A stretch of 64,000 nt of DNA from an uncultured Gammaproteobacteria bacterium (GTDB taxonomy: Bacteria; Pseudomonadota; Gammaproteobacteria; Magnimaribacterales; D2472). The notes below the pieces were generated by a model. That model was not told the DNA's origin. It worked only from the letters and a program-made list of their open reading frames with translations, and made no database searches. The DNA is taken from the NCBI GenBank assembly GCA_964523375.1, contig CAZFYG010000003.1, forward strand, positions 35,471 to 99,470. Direction: 5' to 3'. Positions 12,010 to 50,096 of the stretch are shown here, one piece after another. Numbering within the stretch: the stretch's first letter is position 1; each line of letters begins with the position of its first letter. The position numbers and the translations under genes were made by a program.

Positions 12010-12024
12010 TGTAAATTTTTTACA
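12010..12024. promoter_or_regulatory. HexR/RccR-type box upstream of gap
   Basis: TGTAA-ATTTT-TTACA matches TGTAR-N5-YTACA, 60 bp before the gap start. Confidence 0.6.
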
Positions 12025-12084
12025 AATAGTTCGTGCATTTTTAATACGTTGTTATAGAATTTAATTTTAATTAATTCACAATCT

Positions 12085-13587
12085 ATGACTAATCAAAAAG
12101 ATCCTAATTTTATTTCAACTGCTCGACAAGATAGAATTCTTCCTGAAGATACATTCGCAGATTGGAAGTGGAGAGAGGCCCTGGCAGAGCTTATGGTGCC
12201 TGTCATAGGGACTTTATATAGAAATGGTATCAATACACTAATTTACGGCAAATCTTTAGTTAATCAATCACCTGTTGAGTTAATGAGGGCCCACAGGTTT
12301 GCTAGGCAATCAGATAATAATGAGCTTAGCGAGTTTGAAACTTATCCTATTCTTCTTCATCTTGCCTCTTTGCAGCTTAATGATTGCGAAGTTGATATAG
12401 GAGAGCTAGCAGTAAAATGTCCATTTTTTGAAAGATTAAAAGAAGATCAAACAGGGCTTGAAACATACGTAAATGAGCAACTCAAGGGTGTTATTGGCTT
12501 TGATTCATCAAGGCCATCAGCTCCAACTAATATAGTCTTGTATGGTTTTGGTAGAGTTGGAAGGCTTATAGCAAGGATGCTTGTTCAGTCAACTGGACCT
12601 GGAAATTATTTTAGACTAAGTGCAATTGTTATTAGAAAAGCTTCAGATGATGATATTTACAAAAGAGCAAGTTTACTGCAAAGAGATTCAGTTCATGGTG
12701 CCTTTAATGGAACAGTTCGTGTGGATGAGGCTGATAGCTCATTGGTTATAAATGGTAACCCTGTAAAAATAATATATGCAAACAGCCCAAGTGATGTTGT
12801 TTATAATGACCATGATATTTTAAATCCTATTGTTATAGACAATACTGGAGCATGGAGAGATGAAGAAGGCCTTTCTAAACATTTAAAATCTGGAGCAAAA
12901 AAAGTAATTTTAACCGCACCTGCAAAAGGAAATATTAAGAATATTGTTAATGGTGTTAATAACAATATATTAGACAAAAATGATGAAATAATATCTGCTG
13001 CATCATGCACAACCAATGCAATCGTTCCTGTTTTAGATATTCTAAATAAGCAATATGGTATTGAAGGCGGTCACATAGAAACAGTTCATTCATACACAAA
13101 TGACCAAAACCTTATTGATAATTTTCATAAAGGAGATAGGCGAGGACGAAGTGCGGCACTTAATATGGTCATCACATCAACCGGAGCTGTAAAAGCTGTC
13201 TCAAAAGCACTTCCTGAGCTTGATGGTAAATTAACTGGAAATGCAATTAGAGTACCTACACCAAATGTAAGTCTTGCAATTTTATCTCTTACACTCAATA
13301 AAGAGACATCAAAAGAATCATTAAATAACTACCTTAGATCAATGGCTTTTCACTCTTCATATAGAGAAATACTTGGTTTTGTAAACTCATCTGAAGTGGT
13401 TTCAACAGACTTTTACTCTTCGCCTTTTGCAAGCATTATTGATTCTCAAGCAACGATAGTAAGTGGTAAGAGAATCACTTTATATTGTTGGTATGATAAT
13501 GAGTATGGTTATTCTAAGCAGGTTGCCTCATTAACTAAAAAAATTGCTGGTGTTAATCTTGTAAGATTACCTATACCAATTGACTAA
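12085..13587 (+). CDS. gap: Glyceraldehyde-3-phosphate dehydrogenase, long form with N-terminal extension
   Basis: LYGFGRVGR, SAASCTTN (catalytic Cys), WYDNEYGY; about 145 aa extension as in Pseudomonas-type long GAPDH. Confidence 0.93.
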   Translation: MTNQKDPNFISTARQDRILPEDTFADWKWREALAELMVPVIGTLYRNGINTLIYGKSLVNQSPVELMRAHRFARQSDNNELSEFETYPILLHLASLQLNDCEVDIGELAVKCPFFERLKEDQTGLETYVNEQLKGVIGFDSSRPSAPTNIVLYGFGRVGRLIARMLVQSTGPGNYFRLSAIVIRKASDDDIYKRASLLQRDSVHGAFNGTVRVDEADSSLVINGNPVKIIYANSPSDVVYNDHDILNPIVIDNTGAWRDEEGLSKHLKSGAKKVILTAPAKGNIKNIVNGVNNNILDKNDEIISAASCTTNAIVPVLDILNKQYGIEGGHIETVHSYTNDQNLIDNFHKGDRRGRSAALNMVITSTGAVKAVSKALPELDGKLTGNAIRVPTPNVSLAILSLTLNKETSKESLNNYLRSMAFHSSYREILGFVNSSEVVSTDFYSSPFASIIDSQATIVSGKRITLYCWYDNEYGYSKQVASLTKKIAGVNLVRLPIPID

Positions 13588-13665
13588 AATACCTAGAAAC
13601 TCAAAGATATTACGACTATAATCACCTCGATTTTGTAACTATAATTAACTATTAAGTAATTTTAA

Positions 13666-14973
13666 GTGATTTTAATTAAAAAAGGATTGAATCTCCCAAT
13701 ATCTGGTCATCCTGATCCAGTTGTTTCTGATACACCAACTATTCACAAAGCAGCAATTTTATCGAATGATTTTATTGGCATGAAACCCACTATGCTTGTT
13801 AAAGAAGGTGAAAAGGTAAAGTTAGGGCAAAAAATTATTGAAGATAAGAAAAATCCAGGTGTTTTTTTTACATCTCCATGTGGAGGAGAAGTGTCATCCA
13901 TAAACAGAGGTGATAAAAGAAAGTTTTTATCTATAGAGTTTGATATTGATGCTGAAGAGGAGTCCGTTTTATTTGACACTAACCAGGACCCAAAAACCCT
14001 GCTAATTGAATCAGGTTTATTCAATGCATTTAGAACAAGACCGTTCAATAGAACTCCAAAGGTTGAAGATAAGCCCGATAGGGTATTTATAAATGCATGT
14101 GATACTAATCCACTTGCTGTTAGCCCAAAAGATATAATACAACTTAATGAAGCAGACTTTAATTCTGGTGTTGCTTTTATATCAAGTTTATTTGATTTTG
14201 ATATAGATCTTGCTTTTGAAGATGACCATAGAGATTATACATTTCAAAATGTTAACTCAACCCAATTTAAAGGCCCTCATCCTGCAGGCTTAGCTAGTAC
14301 GCATATTAATGCTATATATCCTGTAAATCTTCATAGAAAAGTTTGGACCATTAATTATCAAGAGGTTATATCTATTGGTTATTTAGTTAATAATGGAAAG
14401 CTAAGAACTCATAAAAATATTTCTTTAGCTGGAGAGTCTGTTTTTAATCCTTCAATTGTTTCTGCAAGAATTGGCTCGAATATTGACCAGCTTTGTGCTG
14501 GTAAGGTAAATAGTAACGCAAGAGTTATTTCAGGTTCTGTTCTTTTCGGCCATGATGCTATAGATGCAATGTCATACTTAGGTTTTTATGACAACCAAGT
14601 TACAGCATTACCTAATCATACCGATGACGTATTTTTAAACTGGGTTATGCCTGGAAAAAACATTCATTCTAAACTTAATGTTTTCTTATCTGCTTTCAAA
14701 AAACCAGCTAAATTTAATTTTAATACAGGAATTAATGGAGGTAACAGGGCGATAGTACCTGTCGGCTCTTATGAGGAAATTATCCCACATGATATTTTGA
14801 TGACCCAGTTACTTAAGGCTCTAGTTGTTGGTGATGTTGAGGTGGCCGCAGAGCTTGGTATGTTTGAATTAACAGCTGAAGATTTGGCATTGGCGACATA
14901 TGTATGCCCTAGTAAATATGATTATTGTTCAATTCTTATGGATAACTTAAACAAGGTATACGAAGAGCTATGA
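13666..14973 (+). CDS. nqrA: Na+-translocating NADH:quinone reductase subunit A (GTG start)
   Basis: IKKGLNLPISG, GMKPTMLVKEGEKV, GPHPAG, YVCPSKYDY. Confidence 0.96.
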   Translation: MILIKKGLNLPISGHPDPVVSDTPTIHKAAILSNDFIGMKPTMLVKEGEKVKLGQKIIEDKKNPGVFFTSPCGGEVSSINRGDKRKFLSIEFDIDAEEESVLFDTNQDPKTLLIESGLFNAFRTRPFNRTPKVEDKPDRVFINACDTNPLAVSPKDIIQLNEADFNSGVAFISSLFDFDIDLAFEDDHRDYTFQNVNSTQFKGPHPAGLASTHINAIYPVNLHRKVWTINYQEVISIGYLVNNGKLRTHKNISLAGESVFNPSIVSARIGSNIDQLCAGKVNSNARVISGSVLFGHDAIDAMSYLGFYDNQVTALPNHTDDVFLNWVMPGKNIHSKLNVFLSAFKKPAKFNFNTGINGGNRAIVPVGSYEEIIPHDILMTQLLKALVVGDVEVAAELGMFELTAEDLALATYVCPSKYDYCSILMDNLNKVYEEL

Positions 14974-16196
14974 AGTTTCTAAGAACAAGTATTGATAATA
15001 TTAAACCTAATTTTATTGGTGAGGGTAAGTATGCAAAATGGTTCCCTTTATTTGATGCTTTTGAAAATTTTGTGTTTAACACAAAAAAATTAACAAAAAA
15101 TCCAGTTCATGTAAGAGATTCAGTCGATATACAAAAAATAATGGTAACTGTTTGGCTGGCAGCATTTCCAGCTATGTTCTTTGGCATGTATAACCTAGGT
15201 GATTATTCTTTAAATTATTTAAATTTAATTGGTCAGCAAAATACTGGTGACTGGCATCATGTATTTGTAAATATTATTGGCTATGACCATACGAGTTTTA
15301 TTGCTAAATTATGGTTTGGTGCATGTTATTTCCTGCCTATTTATATAACAGTCTTTGTAGTAGGTATTGGCTGGGAAGCTTTATTTGCAATTGTTAGGAA
15401 GCATGAAATTAATGAAGGTGCCTTTGTATCAACTATTCTTTTCTCACTAAGCTGCCCTCCAGATTTACCATTATGGCAAGCAGCAATGGGCATAACCTTT
15501 GGTTTGGTTATTGGCAAGGAGATATTTGGAGGTACTGGTAAGAATTTCTTAAATCCAGCTTTAACAGGGAGAGCTTTTTTATACTTTGCTTATCCTGCGC
15601 AAATATCAGGAGATAAAGTATGGATAGCTGGTCTGGCTGATAACAATATTATTCCAGAAGGATACAGTGGTGCTACTGCTCTTGGTGTTGCATCAACTGA
15701 CGGAATGGAAGGTATATATAATAATTTCTCTTGGATGGATTCATTTTTAGGATTCATACCTGGTTCGGTTGGTGAGACATCTGTAATTGCTATCGGTATT
15801 GGTCTAATAATCCTACTTCTCACAAAAGTAGCTTCCTACAGAATTATTTTAGGAACCCTTGTTGGTATGATTTTAATGTCAACAATTTTAAATATTGTTG
15901 GCTCAGAAACAAACCCAATGTTTTATGTACCATGGTATTGGCATTTAGTTATTGGCAGCTTTGCATTTGGTCTTGTTTTTATGGCCACGGAACCTGTTTC
16001 AGGCTCAGGTACAAATACTGGAAGATGGATATACGGTCTTGTAATTGGAATTACTGTTGTGTTGATTAGGGTTGTAAATCCAGCTTTTCCAGAAGGTATG
16101 ATGCTAGCAATACTTTTTGCAAACCTTCTTGCTCCTGTTATAGATCATCTTGTTGTGATGAGTAATATTAAGAAAAGGAGAGCTCGACTATCATGA
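14970..16196 (+). CDS. nqrB: Na+-NQR subunit B
   Basis: HVRDSVD, KEIFGGTGKNFLNPAL, FMN-attachment motif SGATAL, MATEPVS. Confidence 0.97.
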   Translation: MKFLRTSIDNIKPNFIGEGKYAKWFPLFDAFENFVFNTKKLTKNPVHVRDSVDIQKIMVTVWLAAFPAMFFGMYNLGDYSLNYLNLIGQQNTGDWHHVFVNIIGYDHTSFIAKLWFGACYFLPIYITVFVVGIGWEALFAIVRKHEINEGAFVSTILFSLSCPPDLPLWQAAMGITFGLVIGKEIFGGTGKNFLNPALTGRAFLYFAYPAQISGDKVWIAGLADNNIIPEGYSGATALGVASTDGMEGIYNNFSWMDSFLGFIPGSVGETSVIAIGIGLIILLLTKVASYRIILGTLVGMILMSTILNIVGSETNPMFYVPWYWHLVIGSFAFGLVFMATEPVSGSGTNTGRWIYGLVIGITVVLIRVVNPAFPEGMMLAILFANLLAPVIDHLVVMSNIKKRRARLS

Positions 16197-16966
16197 ACGA
16201 TTCAATAACTAAGACTTTAGCAGTAGCTTTCACTATCTGCCTTGTTTGTTCTTTGGTAGTTTCATATACAGCAGTTGGTTTGAGAGATCTGCAAAATGAA
16301 AATAAGCTCAATGACGAAAGAAAGAAAATACTTCAATCAGCAAATATGTACGATGCAGATTTAACTATAGCTTCCCAATTTGAGAAGCTTGAGATGAGGT
16401 ATGTTGATTTTACAACAGGCAAGATTATTGATTCTTATAATAATTTTAGTATCGATACATACAATCAAATAGCAACAACTCGAGACCCTTTGCTATCGTC
16501 TAAAGTTCCAACGTCAGATGATATTGCAATAATAAAAAATAGAGAAAATGTTGGTAAGTTTTATATTGCTAGAAATGATAATGGTGAATTAGACAAAATT
16601 ATTTTACCAATTAGAGGGTATGGTTTGTGGGGAACACTTTTTGGATACATATCAATTGAAAATGATTTTAATACAGTTGCTGGTCTAGAGTTCTATTCAC
16701 ACAAGGAGACACCCGGTCTTGGTGCTGAGGTTGATAACCCAAAATGGAAAGCTTTGTGGCCAGGAAAAAAAATATACAAAGAAGATGAAGTAAAACTGAC
16801 TGTTATGAAAGGTCAAGTTCCATCTGATGCCGCTGATTTAAGTTATAAAGTAGATGGGCTCTCTGGAGCCACTTTAACGAGCAGAGGCGTAACAAACATG
16901 ATCACATACTGGTTTGGAGATTCTGGATATTCAAAATTATTATCTGAGTTAAACTATGAGTCTTAA
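16193..16966 (+). CDS. nqrC: Na+-NQR subunit C
   Basis: [20 protein letters not shown] site [10 protein letters not shown]. Confidence 0.97.
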
Positions 16967-17642
16967 GCAATATAAAGAAGTTATTTTTAAGCCTCTTATT
17001 GATGAAAACCCAATAACGCTTCAAATATTGGGGATTTGTTCAGCGTTAGCTGTTACAAATAATCTCTCAGTCACACTGGTTATGTGCGTTGCCTTAACAA
17101 GTGTTGTAGCTTTTTCAAATTTGTTTATATCAATAATAAGAAACTACATTCCTAGTAGCATTAGAATAATTGTTCAAATGACAATTATAGCTTCACTTGT
17201 AATTGTTGTTGATGAGCTCTTAAAAGCATACGATTATGAAACAAGTAAAAAATTATCAGTCTTTGTTGGTCTGATAATCACAAACTGCATAGTAATGGGT
17301 CGAGCCGAAGCTTTTGCAATGAAAGAAAGGCCTTTGTTGAGTTTTTTTGATGGTCTTGGAAACGGACTTGGATACAGCTTAATATTGATAGGCGTTGCTG
17401 TTATCAGGGAGCTATTTGGCTCTGGAAGTCTAATGGGGTATGAGATATTCACATTAGTTTCTAATGGGGGTTGGTATTTACCAAATAACTTATTACTTTT
17501 ACCACCAAGCTCTTTCATCATCATTGGTTTATTTATATGGGCCATTAGGACAATTAGACCAAATCAAATAGAAGTGGATGATTTTAAAGTTTCTAAACAC
17601 TCCACGGCACCAGATTTAACAAAGAGAGAGTTGAATGTTTGA
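16956..17642 (+). CDS. nqrD: Na+-NQR subunit D
   Basis: [34 protein letters not shown]. Confidence 0.97.
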
Positions 17643-18246
17643 ACATTACTTAAATATATTTATCACCACAGTATTTATTGAAAATATTGCTTTGAGTGTT
17701 TTTCTTGGAATGTGTACTTTTATAGCAATTTCAAAGAAAATTGACGCAGCTTTTGGCTTAGGTATTGCCGTAATAGTGGTATGTGTTATTACTGTGCCCT
17801 TAAATAATCTAATTTATAACTTCATATTAAGAGAGGATGCATTAGTTTGGCTTGGTGTCGAAGGTACTAATTTAGAGTTTGTAGAGCTGATCAGTTATAT
17901 AGGAGTAATTGCCGCGTCAGTTCAAATTCTTGAAATGTTCCTTGATAAATATGTGCCAGCCCTTTATACAGCTTTAGGTCAATTCCTACCATTAATTACA
18001 GTGAATTGCGCCATTCTTGGTGCATCATTGTTTATGATTGAAAAAGATCTGCTTTTTGGCGAAAGTGTTGTCTATGGATTTGGGGCAGGATTTGGATGGG
18101 CGCTTGCCATTGTTATATTAGCTGGCATCAGAGAGAAGTTAAAATATTCTGATATTCCTGAAGGGCTAAAAGGTCTTGGTGCAACATTTATTATCGTTGG
18201 TTTAATGAGCTTTGGATTCATGTCATTTGGAGGCATATCTTTATAA
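17635..18246 (+). CDS. nqrE: Na+-NQR subunit E
   Basis: [20 protein letters not shown]. Confidence 0.97.
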
Positions 18247-18248
18247 TT

Positions 18249-19475
18249 ATGAATATTGATTTAATTTTTGGTGTGATTTCTTTCTCAGGAATCGTTTTAA
18301 TACTTGTGATGATTATCATGGCTGCAAGGTCTAAACTAGTTTCTACAGGAGATGTAACTATTGAGATAAATGGGGATGCTTCAAACCCTCTAGTAGTTCC
18401 AGCAGGCTCAAAATTACTTCAAACATTAGCTGATAATAAAATTTTTCTCTCATCTGCTTGTGGCGGTGGTGGCACATGTAGTCAATGCAAGTGTCAAGTT
18501 GTTGAAGGAGGGGGGTCAATTCTTGCTGCTGAAGAATCTCATTTCAATACAACAGAAAAAAATGAAGGATGGAGACTTTCATGCCAAGTAGCAGTTAAAA
18601 ATGATTTAAAGATTAATGTTCCCGAAGAAATATTTGGTGTAAAAGAGTGGGAGTGCGAGGTAATTTCTAATGAAAATGTTGCAACGTTTATTAAAGAGCT
18701 TGTTTTAAAACTACCAGAAGGTGAAAATGTTGACTTTAGAGCTGGAGGTTATGTTCAATTAGAGGCTCCAGAGTATGAAATAGACTATAAAGATTTTGAT
18801 ATCCAGGATGAATACCGCTCGGACTGGGATAAATTTAAAATCTGGGAAAATAAAGCCACCAATCTAGAGCCTGTTATCAGAGCTTACTCCATGGCTAACT
18901 ATCCTGAGGAAAAAGGTGTTATTAAATTTAATATAAGAATTGCTTCACCTCCCCCTGGTATGGATGTTCCCCCTGGTGTTATGTCCTCATGGACTTTTAA
19001 CCTCAAGCCTGGTGATAAGGTTAAGGTGTTTGGTCCTTTCGGTGAGTTTTTTGCAAAAGAAACTTCTAATGAAATGGTTTTCGTTGGAGGTGGTGCAGGT
19101 ATGGCACCGATGAGATCACATATTTTTGATCAATTACTTAGACTGAATTCTGATAGAAAAATAACTTTCTGGTATGGAGCTAGAAGTCTCAAAGAAATGT
19201 TTTATGTTGAAGAGTTTAATGCATTAGCTGAAAAATATGATAATTTTGAATGGCATGTTGCATTATCTGATCCCCAGCCTGAGGATGATTGGGAAGGTGA
19301 TACGGGTTTTATACATAATGTGTTATATAAAAATTACCTCAGTTCTCATGAAGCCCCAGAAGATTGCGAATATTATATGTGTGGCCCTCCAATGATGAAT
19401 AAAGCAGTTATAGATCTTCTTATCAATCTTGGTGTTGAGCCAGAGAATATTGCATTAGACGACTTTGGTGGCTAA
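18249..19475 (+). CDS. nqrF: Na+-NQR subunit F
   Basis: 2Fe-2[13 protein letters not shown]...[30 protein letters not shown]. Confidence 0.98.
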
Positions 19476-20481
19476 TCAAACATTGGTTAAAAGATCATAT
19501 ATATCTAAATTAATAGCTCTTTTTGTAGGCTTTTTATGTTTGGTGATAGCCTATAACCATAACTCTTCAAGTACATATATATTTAAAGGAGAGGCATATG
19601 GAACAACATGGACCCTTACTACAACAAAGTACCTCAATGACTCACACAAGATAGCAATTAAAGATATTATTAAAAAGATAGATTATGTTGCCTCTAATTA
19701 CAAAGAGGACTCTGAAATTGCCAAAATAAACTCATCACCAAATTCTACAGATATTAAAGTCTCAAATGATTTATTTAAAATATTAGAAATTGCTAATAAT
19801 ATTAGTGCTCTAACAAATAATTCATACGATATAAAACTAGGTAAATATTCTAGTTCACTTGGTTTTTCACCTACTTTTAATAAAGACTTATCTACAGATG
19901 GCACATCATTTTTTTTGCTTAATAAAACTAATCAAACATTAAATAAAAACGGTGACTTTTGGTTTGATTTATCATCTATAGCAAAAGGTTATGCTGTTGA
20001 TAAGATTGTTACTTATTTAGAATTAAATAATTTTAATAACTTTATAGTTGAAATCGGAGGAGAGTTAACTGTTAAAGGCTATAGTCATAATGATAATTGG
20101 CTATTGGCCATACAAGACCCAAGGCTATTAACTCAAAAACCTGGGAAGCTGATTACTAACAAAGATGGTAAAAAAATATCTATAGCAACATCGGGTGAAT
20201 ATAGAAATTATACATTTGACAAAACTGGTAAAAGGATTACGCACACTCTTAATCCCATTACAAAAAAATCTATTTTAAATGATTCCTTATCCGTAACCGT
20301 GGTATCTAAAGTATCAGCTGCACACGCTGATGCTTTAGCAACAGCATTTAATGTTATGAGTACTAATAATGCCATCAAAGTGGCTAATGACAATGAAATA
20401 GCGGCTATGTTTATAATGCAAGAAGCTGATAAATTAGAATTTAGATACACAGATGCATGGTATTATTCTGAGTATGAGTAA
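19465..20481 (+). CDS. apbE: FAD:protein FMN transferase
   Basis: [40 protein letters not shown]; follows nqrF. Confidence 0.93.
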
Positions 20482-20653
20482 CTTCTTAATAACTTTCTTA
20501 ATAATAGGAACATCTTTCTTGGGTTTGGCAATTGGTCTTATTCTAAGAAATCAACCAATTAAAGGTTCTTGCGGGGGCATGGCGAACCTGGAATCAGGCT
20601 CACCATGTCAGATCTGTGGGAGAACAGATCCGAGTAACTGTGATGAGGTCTAG
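20474..20653 (+). CDS. nqrM: Na+-NQR maturation protein NqrM (start moved to ATG 20474)
   Basis: One TM helix then IKGSCGG...CQICG...C; canonical position after apbE. Confidence 0.88.
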   Translation: MSNFLITFLIIGTSFLGLAIGLILRNQPIKGSCGGMANLESGSPCQICGRTDPSNCDEV

Positions 20654-22224
20654 AACTGGTTCATAGTATTATCTTCACCAGATGCTTTTAACGCAGCATC
20701 GCCTGCAAAATACTCCTTATGATCATCACCCATGTCTGATCCAGCCATGTTTTGGTGTTTCACACACGCAATACCTTCTCTTATTTCCTTTCTTTGGACG
20801 CCTTTTACATAGCCAAGCATACCCTCATCACCAAAATACCTTTTAGCTAAGTTATCTGTGGATAGGGCGGCTGTATGGTAGGTTGGCAATGTAATTAAAT
20901 GATGAAATATACCAGCTTCTCTGGCTGCATCGCTTTGGAAGGTTTTGATTTTTTCATCAGCTAAACTTGATAGATCTGAATTATCATACTTTTCATTCAT
21001 TAGATCACCTCTATCGTAGGCACTAACATCATTACCCTGTTTTTCCATCAAATCAAAGACTTGTTGTCTAAAGTTTAAAGTCCAATTGAAAGATGGGCTG
21101 TTATTATAAACAAGCTTGGCATTAGGAATAACTTTCTTTATTTCACTCATCATCGCGCCAATTTGCCCAATATGTGGTTTTTCGGTTTCAATCCATATTA
21201 AATCAGCTCCATTTTGTAAACTTGTTATGCTATCAAGAATGCATCGAGCCTCTCCTGTTCCTTCCTTGAATTTATACAAATTACTTGGAAGTCTTTTTGG
21301 TCTAACAAGCTTCCCATCCTGATTAATCAAGACATCACCATGGTTCATTTCATCAGCAGTTACTTCTTCAACATCTAAAAATGAGTTGTATTGATCTCCC
21401 AAATCACCTTTTTCTTTAGTAACAGCAATCTGTTTAGTAAGACCAGCACCAAGTGAATCTGTTCTTGCAACAATAACCCCATCATCAACACCTAACTCTA
21501 GGAATGCATATCTTACAGCGTTGATTTTAGCCAAGAAATCAGCATGGGGAACAGTCACTTTTCCATCTTGATGCCCACATTGTTTTTCATCAGAAACTTG
21601 ATTTTCAATCTGTATACAACAAGCTCCTGCTTCAATCATTTGTTTGGCCATTAAGTAAGTAGCTTCCTCATTACCAAATCCCGCATCGATATCTGCAATG
21701 ATTGGAACAATATGGGTTTGAAAATTATCTATTTTAGATTGAATTTTTGGTTTATTTAAATCATCTGCTTTATCCAGCTCTCTAAATAACCCACCTAATT
21801 CTCTAGCATCTGCCTGCCTTAGGAAGGTATATAGCTCTGAAATTAACGAAGCAACAGATGTTTTTTCATGCATTGATTGATCGGGTAATGGACCAAATTC
21901 TGATCTTAGAGCAGCAACCATCCATCCAGATAAATAAAGATATTTCTTATCAGTTGTTTGAAAATGTTTTTTTATCGAAATAAGCTTTTGCTGTCCAATA
22001 AATCCATGCCAGCAACCAAGTGATTGAGTATATTTACTTGTATCACCATCATAATCATCCATGTCTCTTCTCATTATAGAGGCTGTATATTTAGCAATAT
22101 CTATTCCTGACTGGAATTGATTTTGAACACGCATTCTTTTTACATACTCTGGATTTATAGAGCTCCAATTTGAAGAGTTCATTCTATGTATATTACTAAT
22201 ATTATTAATATCTGTTTCGCTCAT
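20650..22224 (-). CDS. aceA: Isocitrate lyase, long Pseudomonas-like type
   Basis: YLYLSGWMVAA, IIADIDAGFG, active-site KQCGHQDGK, WIETEKP, YNNSPSFNW. Confidence 0.96.
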   Translation of the reverse strand: MSETDINNISNIHRMNSSNWSSINPEYVKRMRVQNQFQSGIDIAKYTASIMRRDMDDYDGDTSKYTQSLGCWHGFIGQQKLISIKKHFQTTDKKYLYLSGWMVAALRSEFGPLPDQSMHEKTSVASLISELYTFLRQADARELGGLFRELDKADDLNKPKIQSKIDNFQTHIVPIIADIDAGFGNEEATYLMAKQMIEAGACCIQIENQVSDEKQCGHQDGKVTVPHADFLAKINAVRYAFLELGVDDGVIVARTDSLGAGLTKQIAVTKEKGDLGDQYNSFLDVEEVTADEMNHGDVLINQDGKLVRPKRLPSNLYKFKEGTGEARCILDSITSLQNGADLIWIETEKPHIGQIGAMMSEIKKVIPNAKLVYNNSPSFNWTLNFRQQVFDLMEKQGNDVSAYDRGDLMNEKYDNSDLSSLADEKIKTFQSDAAREAGIFHHLITLPTYHTAALSTDNLAKRYFGDEGMLGYVKGVQRKEIREGIACVKHQNMAGSDMGDDHKEYFAGDAALKASGEDNTMNQF

Positions 22225-22330
22225 GATTGTGACCTATAATTAATTTATGTAGTCTAGTTAATAATATTTGTTTTATTCAGTCAACGACTATATTTAAAGC
22301 TTTAGGTAAAGCATATTTGGAATTATTTTA

Positions 22331-22345
22331 TGTAGTTATACTACA
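22331..22345. promoter_or_regulatory. HexR/RccR-type box upstream of aceA
   Basis: TGTAG-TTATA-CTACA inside a perfect 9-3-9 inverted repeat TTATGTAGT-TAT-ACTACATAA (22328-22348). Confidence 0.7.
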
Positions 22346-22352
22346 TAATTTA

Positions 22353-23714: not shown

Positions 23715-23740
23715 AATTTATTTTATATTATTTTATAGTT

Positions 23741-24838: not shown

Positions 24839-24928
24839 TATCGCGCTTAATTCGTTTTATATTAAAAAATTTAGGAGTATAATTATCACCGATTTTGATT
24901 AAGAAATCTTATATTACGGGGTAAAAAA

Positions 24929-30770: not shown

Positions 30771-33632
30771 ATGAAAATTAGAAACATAACACTCGCCCTA
30801 CTACCTTTAATCTATACTTCTTCCATATACGCTTCAGCACTATCAGAGCCTACGAGCTATTCAAAAAATCTGTATACAGAAAATATATTATCTGGTACTT
30901 ATGATAGCAATATAGACAAGCCTGATAATTTTCTTGATTTTGGCTATGGAGAAAGAGTTGCTAGCCCTTCTCAAATAACCAATGCAATCTTGAGTTGGGG
31001 TAACCAATCAAATAAGTTAAAAGTGGTTGAGTATGCTCGTTCGCACGAAAACCGTCCATTATATGCAGTTTATATTTCTTCAGAGGAAAATATCAATCGA
31101 CTTGATGAGATAAAAAAAGATGTAATTAAACTATCCGATGCCAGAGAAATTAATGATTCGAGGGCTAATAAATTAATTGATAAATTGCCAGCAATAGCAT
31201 GGCTAGCCTACTCTATCCATGGAAATGAGACTTCTGGGGCAGATGCAGCGCTAGGGCTCATATATCATCTTATTGCTAGCACAGACAAAGAAGTTATAAA
31301 TATGCTTTCTGAAATGGTAGTAATAGTTGATCCAATGATGAATCCAGATGGAAGAGATAGGTTTGCTAAATCATTAGAGCAATATAGAGGTGTGGCCCCT
31401 AGCTATGATGATCAGTCACTTATCCATACTGGAGATTGGCCTTATGGACGAACTAATCATTATTATTTTGATTTAAATAGAGACTGGATATATCTAACAC
31501 AACCAGAGACACAGGGCCGAGTAGCACTAATAAACCAATGGAGGCCACAAATATTAGTAGATGCGCATGAAATGGGTCCTCAAGATACATTTATGACTGG
31601 GCCTGCTAGAGAACCAATCAATAAAAATATGAGTGAAAACATTATCAAATGGGGAAATATATTTGCTCAGGATCAAGGATCTGAATTTGATAAAAGAGAT
31701 TGGCGTTTTTATACAGGCGAATGGCATGAGGACTTATATCCAGGCTACTCATTTTATGTAAATTTTAGAGGAACATTAGGGATATTATATGAACAGTCAC
31801 GCATGGCTGAAGATGGCGTAAAAAGACCTGAAGGAACCATTCAGTCATACAAAGAGTCAGTTCACCATCAGTTTGTAAGTTCATTAACTAATCTTAAAAC
31901 CTTACAAAATAATAGTAATGAAATGTATCAAGATTATTGGGATGGAAGAAAGTTAAATATATCCAATGAAAGTAAGTGGGCAAATCAATCATTTGTTATA
32001 TTGCCAACAAAAAATAAGAAACGAATAAACACACTTGCAAATAAACTAAAAGCACAAAATATTGAAATTTATACGAATAATAAACCCATAAAAGTTAAAA
32101 AAATTCTAAAGCAATCAGGTGATATTAAAGATGAATTTATAATTCCTATCAACAGCATGATCATACCAAATCGTCAACCTGAAGCACCCTTAGTTTCTGC
32201 TATTCTTGAGTTTGATGCTGATATTGATAATGAAGTTCTTAAGAAGGAAAGACAGGCTACTTTAAAAAATGGTTCATCTATTATGTATGACACAACAGCT
32301 TTTAATTTTACAATGATGTATGGCTTGGATGCTATAACAGTGCCTGAATTTCTTAATGAAGACCTTGAGGAGTGGCTCCCCTCACCTATGACAATTGATG
32401 TAAATGATGAGGCGATTATGTGGGCAGTTGAAGGAGATGATGACTCATCTGTATCATTTGCTGCAAGACTAATGGAGCAGGATGTTATTGTAAGAATTGT
32501 TGATAAAGATTTTTTACTATCAAGTAAATCATTATCAAGAGGTAGTGTAATTGTGCTACAAATGGATAATCCTAATGTTAAAAATTTAACTTCACTTGTA
32601 TCAAATACTGCTACAAATCTAAATATTTCAGTTTTTTCTCTTGATTCAGGCTTTGGAGAAAAAGAATTACCAGATTGGGGCGGCAGGCATTTTAGGCTTT
32701 TAAACAAACCAAAAATAGCAGTTCTTGGTCATAATGGATTTAGCTCATATGATGTTGGCGTAAGCTGGTGGTCACTTGATCATCATCTTGGTATTAGACA
32801 TAGTCTATTGAATACATCAATAATTGGTTATGCTGATTTACGAAGGTATAACACGATAATAATGCCAAGCGGTTTCAGGAGCCTATCACAAGGTGAGACT
32901 TCTGCTCTTAAAGACTGGATTGAACAAGGTGGGACATTAATAGCTCACAATGGAAGCACAAGAAGACTTCTTTCACAGGATTCATTCACTAGTGTAAAAG
33001 AAATTACAAAATCCTTTGATTTAAGTCATCAATACAATGTAGACCTTCAAAGAGAGTTTTTAGCTTTAGATACAATAGTGGATAAAACTAAAGTTAATAA
33101 TAATAAAGTTGATTTCGAACTGAATTACCCATGGGAAAAATCTGATACTAGGATTGACATTGATACATTAAAAAAACGAGATAAATGGCAATCATTATTT
33201 ATGCCTTCTGGAGCCTTTGTTTCGGGAAGAATAGATAGTAGTCATTGGTTAACTTTTGGGGCAATAGACACAATACCCCTTCTCTATTCAAATTATCCAG
33301 TTTTAATGTCTGACTCACGTTCAAATGCAGTTATTAGAATTGGAGAGCTATCAGAGAATGATAAGGTTGATACTTATAGGACTTTGAACTGGTCAGATAT
33401 TCCATCAGGAAATGATCTTAATGTAAGGATGAGTGGTCTAGTTTGGCCTGAAGCTTCAAAGAGAATAGCAAATTCAGCATATTTAACTCAGGAGCGTTAT
33501 GGTAAGGGGCAGATCATCCTGTTCTCTGGTGAACCTAACTTTAGGGGATCTAGCCTTGGCACAAATAGACTTTGGCTTAATGCAGTTGTTTATGGGTCTG
33601 GTTTGGGTACAACTCTAAACTTATCACTCTAA
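30771..33632 (+). CDS. Secreted M14 family zinc carboxypeptidase with a large C-terminal extension
   Basis: Signal peptide; SIHGNETSG and DAHEMG zinc ligands; NPDGR; DLNRDW. Confidence 0.85.
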   Translation: MKIRNITLALLPLIYTSSIYASALSEPTSYSKNLYTENILSGTYDSNIDKPDNFLDFGYGERVASPSQITNAILSWGNQSNKLKVVEYARSHENRPLYAVYISSEENINRLDEIKKDVIKLSDAREINDSRANKLIDKLPAIAWLAYSIHGNETSGADAALGLIYHLIASTDKEVINMLSEMVVIVDPMMNPDGRDRFAKSLEQYRGVAPSYDDQSLIHTGDWPYGRTNHYYFDLNRDWIYLTQPETQGRVALINQWRPQILVDAHEMGPQDTFMTGPAREPINKNMSENIIKWGNIFAQDQGSEFDKRDWRFYTGEWHEDLYPGYSFYVNFRGTLGILYEQSRMAEDGVKRPEGTIQSYKESVHHQFVSSLTNLKTLQNNSNEMYQDYWDGRKLNISNESKWANQSFVILPTKNKKRINTLANKLKAQNIEIYTNNKPIKVKKILKQSGDIKDEFIIPINSMIIPNRQPEAPLVSAILEFDADIDNEVLKKERQATLKNGSSIMYDTTAFNFTMMYGLDAITVPEFLNEDLEEWLPSPMTIDVNDEAIMWAVEGDDDSSVSFAARLMEQDVIVRIVDKDFLLSSKSLSRGSVIVLQMDNPNVKNLTSLVSNTATNLNISVFSLDSGFGEKELPDWGGRHFRLLNKPKIAVLGHNGFSSYDVGVSWWSLDHHLGIRHSLLNTSIIGYADLRRYNTIIMPSGFRSLSQGETSALKDWIEQGGTLIAHNGSTRRLLSQDSFTSVKEITKSFDLSHQYNVDLQREFLALDTIVDKTKVNNNKVDFELNYPWEKSDTRIDIDTLKKRDKWQSLFMPSGAFVSGRIDSSHWLTFGAIDTIPLLYSNYPVLMSDSRSNAVIRIGELSENDKVDTYRTLNWSDIPSGNDLNVRMSGLVWPEASKRIANSAYLTQERYGKGQIILFSGEPNFRGSSLGTNRLWLNAVVYGSGLGTTLNLSL

Positions 33633-40216: not shown

Positions 40217-40245
40217 GAAAAGTATTTAATATTTAAATAGATCAT

Positions 40246-41166: not shown

Positions 41167-41251
41167 TTTATATATATTTAAATTAACAATTTATTTTAAC
41201 TAAGCTATTTGTTGGAGTAAAACTATAAATTTGCACAGTAGATGAGTTTAA

Positions 41252-41773: not shown

Positions 41774-41779
41774 AGGAAG

Positions 41780-42505: not shown

Positions 42506-42510
42506 AGTTT

Positions 42511-43395
42511 CTAGAGGTTGAGATAGAGTTTCTTGAGACGTATATTCATGGGACCTGGTTGATCTGAGTTACCTATAGACCTTCCATCAATATTAATAAC
42601 GTGTCTCAATGAACCAAGCGTACCAGTAATAAAAGCCTCATCCGCTGAGTAAACGTCAACAAGGGAAAAATTCTTCTCATAAACAGGTATATTATTTTCT
42701 TTACATACATGAATTACTTTTTTTCTAGTTATTCCATTCATACAATAATCACCCGAGCTCGTAAAGACCTCACCATTTTTTATAATAAAAAAATTACATG
42801 AATTAGTAGTATTTACAAAACCATGAGGATCAAGCATCAATGCCTCATCGGCTCCCATTTTTTTTGCTTGAATGCAGGCAAGTATACAATTTAATTTAGA
42901 ATGGCTATTTAACTTTGGGTCCTGACTCATTGGCAAGCCTCTAACCTGAGGGACTGTGGCTAATTTAATACCATCATTGGATTTTGCATCATCAGAATGC
43001 TCCAAGATAATAACCAAACTAGGACCATCTTTTGACAAATCAGGTTGCTGAAAAGGCTTTACTTTTTCACCTCTCGTAACCATAAGTCTTGCATGCGCAT
43101 TATCAACCATTTTGTTTGCTACTCTAGTTTCCTCTAAGGCACCAATAACTTCACTTTTTGACATTGATAGGTTTATATCTATTGCTTTTAGACCCTCAAA
43201 CAAACGATCAATGTGTTCATCTAAAAAAATCCAATTACCATCAACAAGCCTTAACCCCTCCCATATACCATCACCCATTAAGAAACCGCTATCATAAACA
43301 GATATTTTTGCATCTTGTCTTTTATACAAAGAACCATTTATGTAAATTAAGATGTCTTTATTTTTATTTAAATGTGATTGGATGTGATTAGCCAT
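42511..43395 (-). CDS. Class IV (fold-type IV) PLP aminotransferase, BCAT/D-AAT-like
   Basis: SVYDSGFLMGDGIWEG, DPKLNSHSK, EALMLD, GITR, ADEAFITGT. Confidence 0.9.
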   Translation of the reverse strand: MANHIQSHLNKNKDILIYINGSLYKRQDAKISVYDSGFLMGDGIWEGLRLVDGNWIFLDEHIDRLFEGLKAIDINLSMSKSEVIGALEETRVANKMVDNAHARLMVTRGEKVKPFQQPDLSKDGPSLVIILEHSDDAKSNDGIKLATVPQVRGLPMSQDPKLNSHSKLNCILACIQAKKMGADEALMLDPHGFVNTTNSCNFFIIKNGEVFTSSGDYCMNGITRKKVIHVCKENNIPVYEKNFSLVDVYSADEAFITGTLGSLRHVINIDGRSIGNSDQPGPMNIRLKKLYLNL

Positions 43396-43494
43396 TTTTA
43401 AAACAGTTATTAGTTAATACTTATTACATCTTTTGCTAACGGTCTAGTCAACATAAATTAGTAAAAATTATTTGTAATATGCTTTAATTAAAAA

Positions 43495-44370
43495 ATGAAA
43501 AAACTATCTACCTTTTTAGTTATTTGTTGGTATTTACTTTCCTATTTCATTTCAATAATAGTTTTAGATCAAATAAGCATAATTGAAAATATATGGATAA
43601 GAATATTAATTGCTCATATTGTGGCCACGATTATTATATATGTGGGTAGTTTGGTGCATAATAATTCAAGTCTCTATGATCCATTTTGGTCTGTTGCGCC
43701 TATCCCTATTACTTTTTACTTATTTTTTACTCCCGGACTAAGCAATATTACATGCTTGAATAAGTTATTTATTACTTTTCCTATTTTTATTTGGTCAGTG
43801 AGGCTAACTAGAAATTGGTTTATTTCCTGGGATGGCTTTAGTCATGAGGATTTTAGGTATATCAATCTTAAGAAGGGAAATAAACTAAAGCTTGAATTTA
43901 TCAATTTTACAGGAATCCATCTTATTCCAACTTTACAAGTCAATCTATCATTGGCCCCATTGTATTTTATACACAATAGTGTCGAGCTAAATGAAACTAA
44001 CTTCTTATTAATATTAGCAAGTATTTTTACTATGCTGGCTGTAGCTATAGAAACATTAGCAGATGAACAAATGAGGTTATTTAAAAAAGATAGATTGAAT
44101 GACGGTACCACCATGACTAAAGGTCTTTGGCATTATTCAAGACATCCAAATTACTTTGGTGAAGTTATGTTTTGGGTAGGAATTTATCTTATGGCTATAT
44201 TAACAACAGAAACGCCTACTTGGCTCCTAATAGCTCCAGTTTCTATGCTTATGTTATTTATTTTTATATCCTGTCCAATTATGGATAACAGAAGCTTGGA
44301 AAGAAGACATGACTACCAATCCTATATGACTAAGACCTCATCTCTTATTCCGTGGGTTCCTAAAAAATAG
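43495..44370 (+). CDS. DUF1295 (steroid 5-alpha-reductase-like) membrane protein
   Basis: NSSLYDPFWS, EDFRY, ADEQM, GLWHYSRHPNYFGE. Confidence 0.88.
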   Translation: MKKLSTFLVICWYLLSYFISIIVLDQISIIENIWIRILIAHIVATIIIYVGSLVHNNSSLYDPFWSVAPIPITFYLFFTPGLSNITCLNKLFITFPIFIWSVRLTRNWFISWDGFSHEDFRYINLKKGNKLKLEFINFTGIHLIPTLQVNLSLAPLYFIHNSVELNETNFLLILASIFTMLAVAIETLADEQMRLFKKDRLNDGTTMTKGLWHYSRHPNYFGEVMFWVGIYLMAILTTETPTWLLIAPVSMLMLFIFISCPIMDNRSLERRHDYQSYMTKTSSLIPWVPKK

Positions 44371-44372
44371 AC

Positions 44373-44401
44373 AAAAAAAAGCACCGACAAGCGGTGCTTT
44401 T
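44373..44401. terminator. Bidirectional intrinsic terminator between DUF1295 and the TonB receptor
   Basis: A8-GCACCG-ACAAG-CGGTGC-TTTT. Confidence 0.85.
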
Positions 44402-44416
44402 AAAGTCTAGATTAAA

Positions 44417-47119: not shown

Positions 47120-47270
47120 AATACTCCCCCTTGAGTTTAAAAATATTAATATTCAGCAAGCACTTTATGTACTCACAGCCTAATTTTGCACTGTTAATAA
47201 AGAATAGCAATAGTATTGTGCATAATTGCCCAACAAAATTTAGGTTAATAAAGTGGCTTTATTAATTTAT

Positions 47271-48227
47271 TTATGGTCTTAATTGCTGAGACTTTTCAGA
47301 CCGCAGATGTATGAAGAAGAAATAAGTTGCTACAGCACTAAGCAAATGCCATATTCCATGTGCTTGAAAAATGGAATCTGGATTACAGTTTGCATTATCA
47401 GGTGTACCTGTTAGCCAAATTGCAAAAGCAGACATATAAGCAAGCATCCCTAAAAAATACCATTTATAACTTCTTATGCCAGTTGGCTTTTTATCTGCCA
47501 ACAGGCCAGGCAGCCAAAATAGAAAAACCCACCAAAATGATTCTGGGTTGGCCAGTATATCGCCTATTGTTGTTCCAAAAAGAAACAATACTAAAAAGCC
47601 TACAAACCCAGATAAAAATCTATTAATAGGTGACCAGAATTTATATAAAAACTCTGATATAACCCAAAGACCGATAGAAGTTCCAAATAAATTAAAACCT
47701 ATGCCTAAATCCCAAGAGGTAAACCATCTGGCAACAGAGTAAATAATGACAATGGAGAAGTATGTTTTTATAAGTTTGGATGATGACCATCTACCCATTA
47801 ATGAGACGTTGTATAGCCATGGAAAAATAATATACATTATCATACTCAAGTTATCAGCCCACCCACCCCATTCTGTATTTGTTCCATGCATTAACATCGA
47901 ACCAGGGCCAAGCCACCATGCAGCAGATGCATATAAAATTGAGATTGGCGTTAAACCTATAAACTTATTATCAGGAGAAGTTTCTTCGTGTGATATAACC
48001 CAAAAAATATAAAGGCCAACAACCATAAAACCTAAATTGCTTAAAGTATTAACAGGTTCTCTAAATGCTCCGCTACTAACTCTTTCACACCATCTCGATG
48101 CTTCTCCAATTAGGCTAGTATCAGATGAGTTAATCAAACCTGATAACCCTAAAACATAAAATATAATTAAAAATATTATCGAGATAACAAGTGCAATATT
48201 GAATGGAGAATATTTTATATTTAACAT
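47271..48227 (-). CDS. Alkaline ceramidase-like (CREST superfamily) membrane hydrolase (start moved to ATG 48227)
   Basis: WCER...EPVNTLSNL, GSMLMHG (SxxxH), HGIWH (HxxxH), multiple TM helices. Confidence 0.78.
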   Translation of the reverse strand: MLNIKYSPFNIALVISIIFLIIFYVLGLSGLINSSDTSLIGEASRWCERVSSGAFREPVNTLSNLGFMVVGLYIFWVISHEETSPDNKFIGLTPISILYASAAWWLGPGSMLMHGTNTEWGGWADNLSMIMYIIFPWLYNVSLMGRWSSSKLIKTYFSIVIIYSVARWFTSWDLGIGFNLFGTSIGLWVISEFLYKFWSPINRFLSGFVGFLVLFLFGTTIGDILANPESFWWVFLFWLPGLLADKKPTGIRSYKWYFLGMLAYMSAFAIWLTGTPDNANCNPDSIFQAHGIWHLLSAVATYFFFIHLRSEKSQQLRP

Positions 48228-48312
48228 TAAAATCCTTTTTTTAGAGATATTAAATTTATATCTAAATAATATACAAATTTTTAATACATACAATAGAGCA
48301 ATATTTAAAAAC

Positions 48313-48338
48313 AAAAAAGGGCCCGTGAAGAGCCCTTT
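48313..48338 (-). terminator. Intrinsic terminator after etfA
   Basis: AAAGGGC / GCCCTTT stem with a T run on the minus strand. Confidence 0.7.
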
Positions 48339-48353
48339 GTTAGATTTATAGTT

Positions 48354-49283
48354 TTATAGTTGGGAATCTAATTCTGGCAAAGCATTAAATAAATCTGCCA
48401 CTAAACCATAATCTGCAACTTGAAAAATAGGCGCATCCTCATCTTTATTTATTGCAACGATAACCTTAGAGTCCTTCATGCCTGCTAAATGCTGTATAGC
48501 TCCAGAAATACCTACAGCTATATATAAATCAGGCGCAACAATTTTACCTGTCTGACCAACCTGGTAGTCATTTGGAACAAATCCTGCGTCTACTGCTGCC
48601 CTTGATGCTCCAACAGCTGCTCCAAGTTTATCGGCAATCGAATCAAGCAAATGGAAATTCTCACCTGACTGCATCCCTCTTCCACCAGAAATAATAATAT
48701 CTGCCGCAGTAAGCTCAGGCCTATCGCTTTCTGCAATTTCTTCAGAAACAAATTGGCTTATATTTAATGAATCTACAGGATTAACATTAACAACTTCTAC
48801 ATCAGCGCTATTTTGAGTAACAGCGTCAAATGCTGTTGATCTTACGGTTATAACTTTCAATGCATCATTTGACTTTACAGTTGCTATACAGCTACCAGCG
48901 TAGATTGGTCTTTTAAAGGTATCTGCAGATTCAACAGAAATAATATCTGATATTTGTTGTGTATCCAGCTTTGCAGCAACTCTAGGCATTAAGTTTTTAC
49001 CAAATGTCGTAGCAGGAGCTAAAATATTTGAATAATCTGCAGATAAAGACACAACCAATGCTGATACATCTTCCGCTATTTGATTTAAATATAACGGATC
49101 ATTTGAATGGATAATTTTAGAAACACCATCAACCTGCTGACACTCAGTAACAACACTTTCACAATCTGAACCAGCAACTAAAATATGAATATCAACACCA
49201 AGTTGAGTTGCAGCCGCAACAGTATTAAGTGTTGAACCCTTTAAGTTATTATTATCATGTTCTGCTATTACTAATGTACTCAT
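48354..49283 (-). CDS. etfA: Electron transfer flavoprotein alpha subunit
   Basis: [45 protein letters not shown]. Confidence 0.97.
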
Positions 49284-50032
49284 GAGATCACCTTTGCTTC
49301 ATTTTTAAGTTTATCAACCAATTGATCGACTGAGTCAACCATAATTCCTGCTGCTCTGGCTTCGGGCAGTTCTACTTTGAGTAATTCGGTTCTTGGCGAT
49401 GCATCAACACCAGTATCTACCAAAGGAATTACTTTTAGTTCCTTCTTTTTTGCTTTCATAATATTTGGAAGAGATGCGTATCTAGGTTCATTCAAACGCA
49501 AGTCTGTTGTCACAATTGCAGGAGTTGTTAACTTCAATGTTTGAAGACCACCATCAATTTCTCTTGTTACTGATACTGTTCCATCTTCTATGATAAGTTC
49601 AGATGCATTAGTGGCTTGAGGTAAATCAAGAATCGCTCCAAGCATTTGCCCAGTTTGGTTGTTATCACCATCAATTGCTTGTTTACCAAGAATAATAAGG
49701 TCAGGTGATTCATCATTAACAACTTTAGCTAAAACTTTTGCTAGAGCCAAGGGTTCAAGCAATGAATCACATTCAACCAGAATTGCTCTATCGGCACCAA
49801 GTGCTAAAGCAGTTCTTAATTGTTCTTGAGATTCTGTTTTGCCTATAGTAATAGCAATAACCTCAGAAGCCTTGCCTGACTCTTTAACTCTAACGGCCTC
49901 TTCTAACGCTATTTCACAAAAAGGATTTACAGACATTTTTACATTATTTAAATCAACATTTGAATTGTCACCTAGAGGTCTAACTTTTACGTTATAGTCA
50001 ACCACTCTTTTAATTGGAACTAGTATTTTCAT
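49280..50032 (-). CDS. etfB: Electron transfer flavoprotein beta subunit
   Basis: [42 protein letters not shown]. Confidence 0.97.
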
Positions 50033-50081
50033 ATTTAACTCTTAATTTAGGGGTTTATCGGGCTATAATTGTAATGTCTTT

Positions 50082-50096
50082 TGTAAACATTTTACA
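50082..50096. promoter_or_regulatory. HexR/RccR-type box in the divergent etfB / ETF-QO promoter region
   Basis: TGTAA-ACATT-TTACA. Confidence 0.55.

Follow-up and report, generated by a model that had tools for sequence, protein, structure and literature searches.

Three intergenic palindromes of the form TGTAR-N5-YTACA punctuate a 64-kb stretch of DNA from an uncultured gammaproteobacterium of the SAR86 order (genome G000, contig C3:35471-99470; the whole stretch is called the window below). They lie before a glyceraldehyde-3-phosphate dehydrogenase gene (gap), before the isocitrate lyase gene aceA, and between etfB and a likely gene for electron transfer flavoprotein (ETF)-ubiquinone oxidoreductase (ETF-QO). 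We think it likely that these boxes and their counterparts elsewhere in the genome are operators of two paralogous KDPG-type (2-keto-3-deoxy-6-phosphogluconate) RpiR-family regulators, each with an HTH_6 and a SIS domain – a HexR-like protein (paralog A) and an RccR-type protein (paralog B). An initial annotation of this DNA had assigned the boxes to a HexR/RccR-type regulator of the RpiR family, and this attribution is supported: the genome carries two such genes, and the sites are enriched, conserved and linked to the presence of the regulators. Its further proposal that one regulator couples gap, aceA and etf is not supported, since across 41 genomes of the SAR86 order the boxes split into two operators with different phyletic distributions. 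Few uncultured heterotrophs in surface seawater are as abundant as SAR86 bacteria, whose streamlined 1.2-Mb genomes retain very few regulators.

Two classes of intergenic box and two RpiR-family regulators

The source genome comprises 1.23 Mb at 34.7% GC and is 92.5% complete. Intergenic DNA was defined as the 55.8 kb (4.5%) outside long open reading frames (ORFs), with gene calls beyond the window being our own long-ORF calls. TGTAR-N5-YTACA occurs 12 times in the whole genome. Shuffling predicts 0.45 intergenic copies, and the highest count in 2000 shuffles was 4, yet 10 of the 12 are intergenic (Poisson P ~6e-11). The enrichment is confined to a single spacing: when TGTAR-Nk-YTACA was scanned for k from 0 to 30, k = 5 gave the 10 intergenic copies and every other k gave 0-2. 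Because intergenic DNA is only 28% GC and the pattern is itself AT-rich, chance palindromes in AT-rich spacers are an obvious suspect; the shuffles, the spacing specificity and the conservation of sites at fixed distances across genera rule this explanation out, and we give it a negligible probability.

Within the window, shuffles predict 0.36 matches and four are found. The 2281 intergenic bases hold three of them against 0.018 expected (Poisson P ~1e-6), which agrees with the earlier estimate that far less than one copy should occur there by chance. The four matches, and the two genes addressed by the first two boxes, are as follows.

12010-12024: TGTAAATTTTTTACA, predicted HexR-type operator (type 1), 60 nt 5' of the start of the long gap gene
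12085..13587, plus strand: gap, 500-aa PRK08289-type glyceraldehyde-3-phosphate dehydrogenase (NF006139, 691 bits, cutoff 431), predicted target of the box at 12010
20650..22224, minus strand: aceA, isocitrate lyase, 524 aa (NF005074, 1020 bits)
22331-22345: TGTAGTTATACTACA, predicted RccR-type operator (type 2), the distal full palindrome 106 nt 5' of the minus-strand gene aceA
32546-32560: TGTAATTGTGCTACA, fourth pattern match, mixed type, within a 953-aa ORF
50082-50096: TGTAAACATTTTACA, HexR-type-like candidate box between etfB and ETF-QO, the weakest of the boxes and genus-restricted

The three intergenic boxes thus stand where the initial annotation had placed them, and its gene identities – gap, aceA, and etfB next to a likely ETF-QO – were borne out. 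The aceA box lies 7 nt past the purB stop codon. The fourth match, which had escaped that annotation, is best read as a chance occurrence and not as an operator.

Sorting the genome-wide copies by their inner bases yielded two classes. All seven copies of TGTAA-N5-TTACA (type 1) are intergenic (0.22 expected), as are all three copies of TGTAG-N5-CTACA (type 2; 0.05 expected), which lie at aceA, pntA and pckA; the 10 pure-type copies are therefore all intergenic, and both mixed-type copies are coding. The seven intergenic boxes outside the window include those at pckA, at pntA (divergent from ubiG), at a type I gapA (divergent from oadA) and at an RpiR-family gene (divergent from aceE), together with three in less obvious spacers (panK-like/desaturase-like, ggt/surface lipoprotein gene, and serA-like/ung). 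A one-mismatch box precedes an alanine dehydrogenase gene. Of the additional targets that had been predicted, pckA and aceE thus carry boxes and glcB does not. Logos built from orthologous sites across the order, 22 linked to paralog A and 56 linked to paralog B, differ at positions 5, 6, 7 and 11, with consensus TGTAAAT-w-ATTTACA for the former and TGTAGT-AAA-ACTACA for the latter; in the 56 type-2 sites G5 reaches 88%, T6 86% and C11 100%.

The genome encodes two HTH_6 genes, paralog A (C14:7121-7963) and paralog B (C4:89268-90167), so the absence of an RpiR-family regulator cannot be held against the initial annotation. For both, the best match is the NCBIfam HexR model NF008451, with 264.9 bits for A and 230.5 bits for B (cutoff 296). 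Compared with the Pseudomonas RccR protein PaRccR (PDB 8JU9), paralog B scores 248.6 bits with 45.7% identity over the full length, and paralog A 149 bits with 31.5%. Paralog A is closest to Escherichia coli HexR/YebK (39%, the highest value among the references used), to which paralog B is 35% identical; the paralogs share 34% identity with each other, and the best partner of PaRccR among the four compared sequences is paralog B. Signature residues follow the same division. The helix-turn-helix reads PTVNRFC...G[FY]P in paralog A and E. coli HexR, and PT[IL][VI]RFC...G[FY]QD in paralog B and PaRccR. Of the 14 residues through which PaRccR contacts KDPG, 10 are identical in paralog B and 6 in paralog A; in paralog B the pocket residues K270 and T231 are replaced by alanine and asparagine, respectively, and one C-terminal SLR motif is kept.

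Paralog A resides on C14 in the order oadBA / gapA-pyk-marC-pgl / hexR <> aceE-aceF-zwf-edd-eda-transporter-bglX-glk, for which the E. coli order eda-edd-zwf <> yebK-pykA provides a comparison. Based on these pairwise comparisons and the genome context, paralog A is, by sequence, HexR-like and paralog B an RccR orthologue.

Co-occurrence of regulators and boxes across the SAR86 order

The 41 genomes of the order were searched for both regulators, and boxes were scored in the subsets of genomes given with each count below. Orthologues of paralog A (at least 79% identity) were found in 10 genomes from three genera, paralog B in most of family f1, and neither paralog in 19 genomes. The boxes track the regulators. 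A long gap box (exact or with one mismatch) is present in all eight genomes with paralog A and in none of the 22 without it, and the gene for paralog A is itself preceded, at 9-23 nt, by a type-1 box in every one of the 10 genomes that encode it. The type-2 boxes follow paralog B instead: the aceA box occurs in 17 of 19 genomes with B at no more than one mismatch (19 of 19 at no more than two) and in none of 11 without; the pckA box (up to one mismatch) in 18 of 19 with B and 1 of 11 without; and the pntA box (up to one mismatch) in 19 of 21 with B and 0 of 9 without. Type-2 boxes are present with or without paralog A, and gap-type boxes disappear from genomes in which paralog B is retained together with the boxes at aceA, pckA and pntA. 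A contrast within one genus points the same way, with G020 (which has B) boxed and G013 (which lacks B) unboxed.

Whole-genome counts follow this pattern. The mean number of TGTAR-N5-YTACA matches is 11.5 in genomes with paralog A, 6.2 in those that have B alone and 4.2 where both are missing; a reversed-pattern control gives 4.5-6.5. In G008, a genome from a second genus whose HexR is 82% identical, 14 of the 17 boxes are intergenic; the targets it has in common with G000 are pckA, gapA, hexR/aceE, pntA, aceA and TonB-dependent receptors, and an extra box lies between aceF and zwf. The expectation that the sites would be concentrated in intergenic DNA and conserved in relatives was thus borne out, with orthologous boxes recurring across genera.

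Could a single HexR/RccR-type protein bind all of these boxes, coupling gap, aceA and etf? All are 15 bp long with TGTA and TACA at their outer ends, the paralogs are related, and mixed boxes at pckA in some genomes hint at cross-recognition. However, the logos of the 22 and 56 sites separate cleanly at the four positions given above, the composite TTGAC/ACTACA promoter module described below accompanies only type-2 boxes, and electrophoretic mobility shift assays (EMSA) with PaRccR show that substitutions in TGTAGT/ACTACA abolish binding. Above all, the phyletic split – gap-type boxes lost where paralog B and its three boxes remain – led us to reject the single-regulator model, which we regard as improbable.

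We also weighed the proposal that one or more unrelated factors of the TyrR, GntR or PsrA type bind the boxes and merely co-occur with the RpiR paralogs. The co-occurrence spans few independent lineages, and TyrR boxes also start with TGTAAA. Against this, the TyrR-like spacing of k = 8 showed no enrichment in G000 (one of six copies intergenic), type-2 boxes have exactly the sequence of the RccR box defined by experiment and stand before RccR target genes, and type-1 boxes are similar to the HexR consensus in the literature and closely precede the paralog A gene in all 10 genomes that have it. We consider unrelated factors slightly less probable still than a single regulator, and return to two paralogs with separate operators as the preferred reading.

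Promoter architecture at aceA, pckA and pntA

Alignment of the regions upstream of aceA, pntA and pckA revealed a shared module: a full palindrome, then 45-48 nt, an invariant TTGAC, a further 26 nt, and an ACTACA half-site. The distance from box to TTGAC stays at 45-48 nt in 50 promoter instances, and that from TTGAC to ACTACA is 26 nt in 48 of the 50, so that the distal palindrome and the proximal half-site lie ~88 bp apart, centre to centre. Consistent with a link to paralog B, TTGAC-N24-28-ACTAC was found in 18 of 19, 18 of 19 and 18 of 21 promoters of RccR-bearing genomes (54 of 59 together) and in none of 31 others. G000 contains three intergenic copies of the module, and all are at the unlinked promoters of aceA, pckA and pntA. 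The elements of the aceA copy in the window are listed below; the ATGTAGT half-site that the initial annotation had reported as an extra was confirmed at 22247-22253 and constitutes the proximal element.

22280..22284, minus strand: TTGAC, -35-like element of the aceA promoter module, 46 nt past the box and invariant in a 13-genome alignment; putative -35 role
22248..22253, minus strand: ACTACA, promoter-proximal half-site, 26 nt past TTGAC

RccR has been characterised both biochemically and structurally, with P. fluorescens SBW25 and P. aeruginosa as the organisms studied, and its Pseudomonas regulon comprises pntAA, pckA, aceE, gap, aceA, glcB and rccR (PMC5489143, PMC11014249). The footprinted half-sites TGTAGT/ACTACA are separated by 3 nt at aceE and rccR (15-bp sites) and by 16 nt elsewhere (28-bp sites), and KDPG releases the protein from the short sites (PMC5489143, PMC11014249). 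PaRccR (PA5438), for which the abolition of EMSA binding by half-site substitutions was reported, is a tetramer, and at the Pseudomonas aceE promoter two short sites are separated by 68 bp and the DNA shows signs of being bent (PMC5489143, PMC11014249). The likeness to SAR86 is close in two respects: the box linked to paralog B is the same as the core of the Pseudomonas PaceE probe, TGTAGTAAAACTACA, the exact 15-mer preceding aceA, pntA or pckA in many SAR86 genomes, and the targets aceA, pckA and pntA are common to both groups. The architecture differs. Pseudomonas aceA, pckA, pntAA, gap and glcB carry 28-bp sites, whereas SAR86 aceA, pckA and pntA carry the 15-bp box, paired with a proximal half-site at a fixed ~88 bp; at aceE and the two gap genes of SAR86, the boxes are of the HexR type. 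A genome-wide scan of G000 for the 28-bp spacing, TGTAR-N18-YTACA, found no enrichment (one of 11 copies intergenic, and that one type-1-like). Further differences are that RccR persists in SAR86 genomes lacking edd and that K270 and T231 of the KDPG pocket are replaced in paralog B.

By analogy with Pseudomonas, paralog B would bind the type-2 box TGTAGT-N3-ACTACA at exactly three promoters – those of aceA, pckA and pntA – and an RccR tetramer would probably contact the distal palindrome and the proximal half-site together. We favour bridging by a tetramer because PaRccR is a dimer-of-dimers tetramer and because the Pseudomonas aceE promoter combines two sites with signs of bending. The sign of control could be either repression by looping or activation of a weak promoter from about -90, and the unusual -10 region and the lack of a scanner-predicted promoter (both described below) led us to make no choice between them.

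Several observations weigh against this reading. The assignment of each protein to its box is argued from co-occurrence and analogy, and the orthology calls come from a four-sequence comparison with signature residues rather than from a tree; both paralogs also fall below the NCBIfam HexR cutoff. The co-occurrence reaches Fisher P ~1e-6, a value that overstates independence because the genomes are not phylogenetically independent and the A-bearing genomes, from three genera, may form one clade. In five A-bearing genomes the box 5' of pckA is of the mixed form TGTAAT...ACTACA. The analogy to RccR is incomplete, as SAR86 has no 28-bp sites and no box at rccR or glcB: the region upstream of rccR itself (paralog B) offered, across 20 genomes, no match better than one to three mismatches, none of them conserved, and the best match upstream of glcB (C15:1523-3748) in G000 has three mismatches. 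At the promoters themselves, the hexamer 17 nt past TTGAC is TnnACT (TTAACT, TTTACT or TCTACT), without the A normally found at position 2, and when the three window sites were scanned for consensus sigma-70 promoters no relevant one was detected on the right strand, so the promoter elements are deduced from cross-genome conservation.

The physiology adds two further difficulties of the same kind. If apo-RccR were to bind the short boxes as in Pseudomonas and to repress, KDPG would switch aceA and pckA on; sugar induction of the glyoxylate shunt would be odd physiology unless these enzymes serve anaplerosis in SAR86. In addition, edd is present in 9 of 10 genomes with paralog A, in 4 of 12 with B only and in 0 of 19 with neither. 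G000 has both edd and eda, and the near-complete genomes G007, G009, G016 and G023 keep RccR and the aceA, pckA and pntA modules without edd. The persistence of regulator and boxes in these genomes implies that KDPG may not be the ligand there, or may come by another route.

These features suggest a variant that we hold only tentatively, as it is more doubtful than the two-paralog reading itself: that SAR86 RccR departs from the Pseudomonas switch, in which one ligand acts on sites of two lengths, and uses only the short palindrome, at a fixed ~88 bp from the half-site, with a ligand that is perhaps other than Edd-derived KDPG. The three promoters combine a good -35 with a -10 that is missing its key A, and RccR could either be essential for their activation or repress them by looping, as the regulator of a minimal anaplerotic, gluconeogenic and NADPH regulon. 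The idea of another ligand arises because regulator and module persist without edd and because two KDPG-contact residues are replaced.

The pckA promoter has an additional feature in some relatives. In G002, G003, G006, G008, G010 and G024 (L145-L150) a second, HexR-type box lies 14-54 nt before pckA, beside the distal RccR box; in five of these six genomes the distal box has the mixed left half, TGTAAT...ACTACA.

Predicted HexR-type targets, the etf spacer and a possible carbon-source switch in SAR86

The distance from a type-1 box to the start codon that follows is 5-80 nt: 8 nt at gapA, 12 nt at hexR, 80 nt at aceE and 60 nt at the long gap. Paralog A would bind the type-1 box TGTAAAT-w-ATTTACA, and its proposed targets are its own gene, aceE, gapA/oadAB and the long gap, with glucanase-like and TonB-dependent receptor genes added in G000 and relatives. 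Since the boxes are promoter-proximal or in the 5' untranslated region, they are most likely repressor sites, from which a phosphosugar, presumably KDPG, would release the protein. The hexR-aceE spacer contains a perfect type-1 box (C14:7976-7990). It also holds a degenerate second HexR-like box, TGTATATTATTAACA (C14:8015-8029), 39 bp away centre to centre and conserved in genera g1 and g5; the pair recalls the two-site layout before Pseudomonas aceE.

Downstream of this spacer (C14:8071-21193), aceE-aceF run into zwf-edd-eda, a sodium:solute symporter gene, a glycoside hydrolase family 3 beta-glucosidase gene and glk, with gaps of 0-25 nt. The joining of pyruvate dehydrogenase to Entner-Doudoroff genes in one apparent operon is unusual, and the position of aceEF at its head would place pyruvate dehydrogenase under HexR rather than under PdhR or RccR.

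We compared these features with published HexR systems. HexR regulons have been reconstructed in at least 87 proteobacterial genomes and vary widely in size; the core consists of zwf, pgl, edd, eda, glk, pyk and gap, and HexR is global in Vibrio and Shewanella and local in Pseudomonas and E. coli (YebK) (PMC11906056, PMC5343134, PMC3223726, PMC5489143). The Vibrio consensus is given as TGTAATTAAATTACA (PMC11906056) and the Pseudomonas consensus as TTGT-N7-8-ACAA, with an operator in the divergent hexR spacer (PMC5489143). SAR86 paralog A likewise lies beside zwf, edd, eda and pyk, its 15-bp palindrome has the outer TGTAA/TTACA of the Vibrio consensus, and a predicted operator lies within the divergent hexR spacer as well as before gapA and the long gap. 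The inner half-site differs, being TGTAAAT in SAR86 versus TGTAATT; the Pseudomonas TTGT-N7-8-ACAA is spaced otherwise. The predicted SAR86 regulon also reaches the PRK08289-type gap, oadAB, TonB-dependent receptors and a glucanase-like gene. HexR and RccR regulons are known from Pseudomonas and Vibrio, and their members in SAR86 are new; we found no paper linking SAR86 with HexR or RpiR.

Beyond central metabolism, HexR-type boxes recur (G000 C9:433; G004 L206; G008 L073, L078, L079 and L081) before genes for a large glucanase-like protein, for TonB-dependent receptors and for surface proteins with cadherin repeats. Judging by this distribution, uptake of a beta-glucan such as laminarin may belong to the HexR regulon. 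Several flanking-gene names, including those of the glucanase-like, cadherin-like, patatin-like, NMO and RraA-like genes of G008 and G004, are readings of the sequence.

Other type-1 boxes stand apart from these targets. The box at C16:16812-16826 lies in a 316-nt spacer with serA-like and ung genes both on the minus strand, and it overlaps a plus-strand TTGACA-N17-ATTAAT promoter-like stretch that no ORF follows; a small RNA or a gene missed by annotation may lie there. In G004 (L209/L210) the classical HexR form TGTAAT-N3-ATTACA appears between orthologues of C28:4988-5548 and C28:5980-6803. In the window, genes for the Na+-translocating NADH:quinone reductase (13666-20481, with only nqrA identified by family model) begin 78 nt 3' of the HexR-boxed gap on the same strand.

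The third window box lies in the spacer between the divergent etf and ETF-QO genes.

48354-49283, minus strand: etfA, 309-aa ORF, named from size and position; divergent from ETF-QO, as is etfB
49280-50032, minus strand: etfB, matching electron transfer flavoprotein beta-subunit models below cutoff
50064..50075, plus strand: TATAAT then TGTAAT, a promoter-like block (GCTATAATTGTAATG in 50060-50075), family-conserved, before ETF-QO
50104..51747, plus strand: ETF-QO, 547 aa, likely start TTG 50117 from sequence and homolog alignments

The ETF-QO name was read from size and position: the best NCBIfam matches of this ORF are FixC-family FAD-dependent oxidoreductase models, below cutoff, and no model names ETF-QO.

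The initial annotation had proposed that HexR/RccR control extends to etf. That the box is real and intergenic was confirmed; as an operator it is the weakest of the three, being genus-restricted and atypical at its inner positions. An exact etf box is present in all five genomes of the window's genus and in none of the 25 others (three HexR-bearing genomes of genera g3 and g5, and 22 without paralog A). Its position weight matrix score of 15.7 is the second-lowest of the ten sites, core sites scoring ~21, and position 7 is C, where all 22 conserved type-1 sites have T. Compared with other genera, the box resembles a ~12-nt insertion beside a pre-existing TTTTACA. The adjacent GCTATAATTGTAATG is kept across most of the family, also in genomes lacking both regulators, and must therefore be regarded as a promoter feature and not as evidence for HexR or RccR binding.

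We consider it about as likely as not that the etf box functions as a HexR operator. The alternative – that a lineage-specific ~12-nt insertion by a conserved promoter acquired the pattern by chance or neutrally, leaving etf and ETF-QO outside HexR/RccR control – seems to us almost equally plausible. The restriction of the box to one genus, in which the whole spacer is nearly identical, fits this alternative, as do its absence from the three HexR-bearing g3 and g5 genomes, its low score and deviant position 7, and the presence of the conserved neighbour block TATAATTGTAATG in genomes without either regulator; sugar-triggered derepression also would make little sense for beta-oxidation electron transfer. 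On the other side, chance predicts only ~0.22 type-1 copies for the whole of the intergenic DNA and seven were seen, so few can be accidents. The box also sits just 3' of the conserved TATAAT, where repressor sites are classically placed, and within the genus the block from the -10 through the box is invariant while the flanks vary.

In other gammaproteobacteria, etf and ETF-QO belong to the PsrA regulon. The palindrome in the SAR86 spacer is HexR-like, and no box of the PsrA or FadR kind was recognised there, though no motif scan for these was made. PsrA, FadR and FadP are the usual controllers of fatty-acid degradation in other gammaproteobacteria (PMC5343134). The proposed link from HexR to beta-oxidation electron transfer is not secure.

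The RccR operator is conserved far beyond Pseudomonas, in a different architecture, and the all-short-site composite promoter and the retention of RccR without edd could make the SAR86 variant worth testing. In the HexR/RccR pair, one arm appears to govern sugar catabolism and pyruvate dehydrogenase, and the other the glyoxylate shunt, phosphoenolpyruvate carboxykinase and transhydrogenase. This provides a concrete, testable wiring diagram for carbon-source switching in SAR86, in which hexR, rccR and their boxes serve as markers that separate SAR86 genera by carbon strategy.

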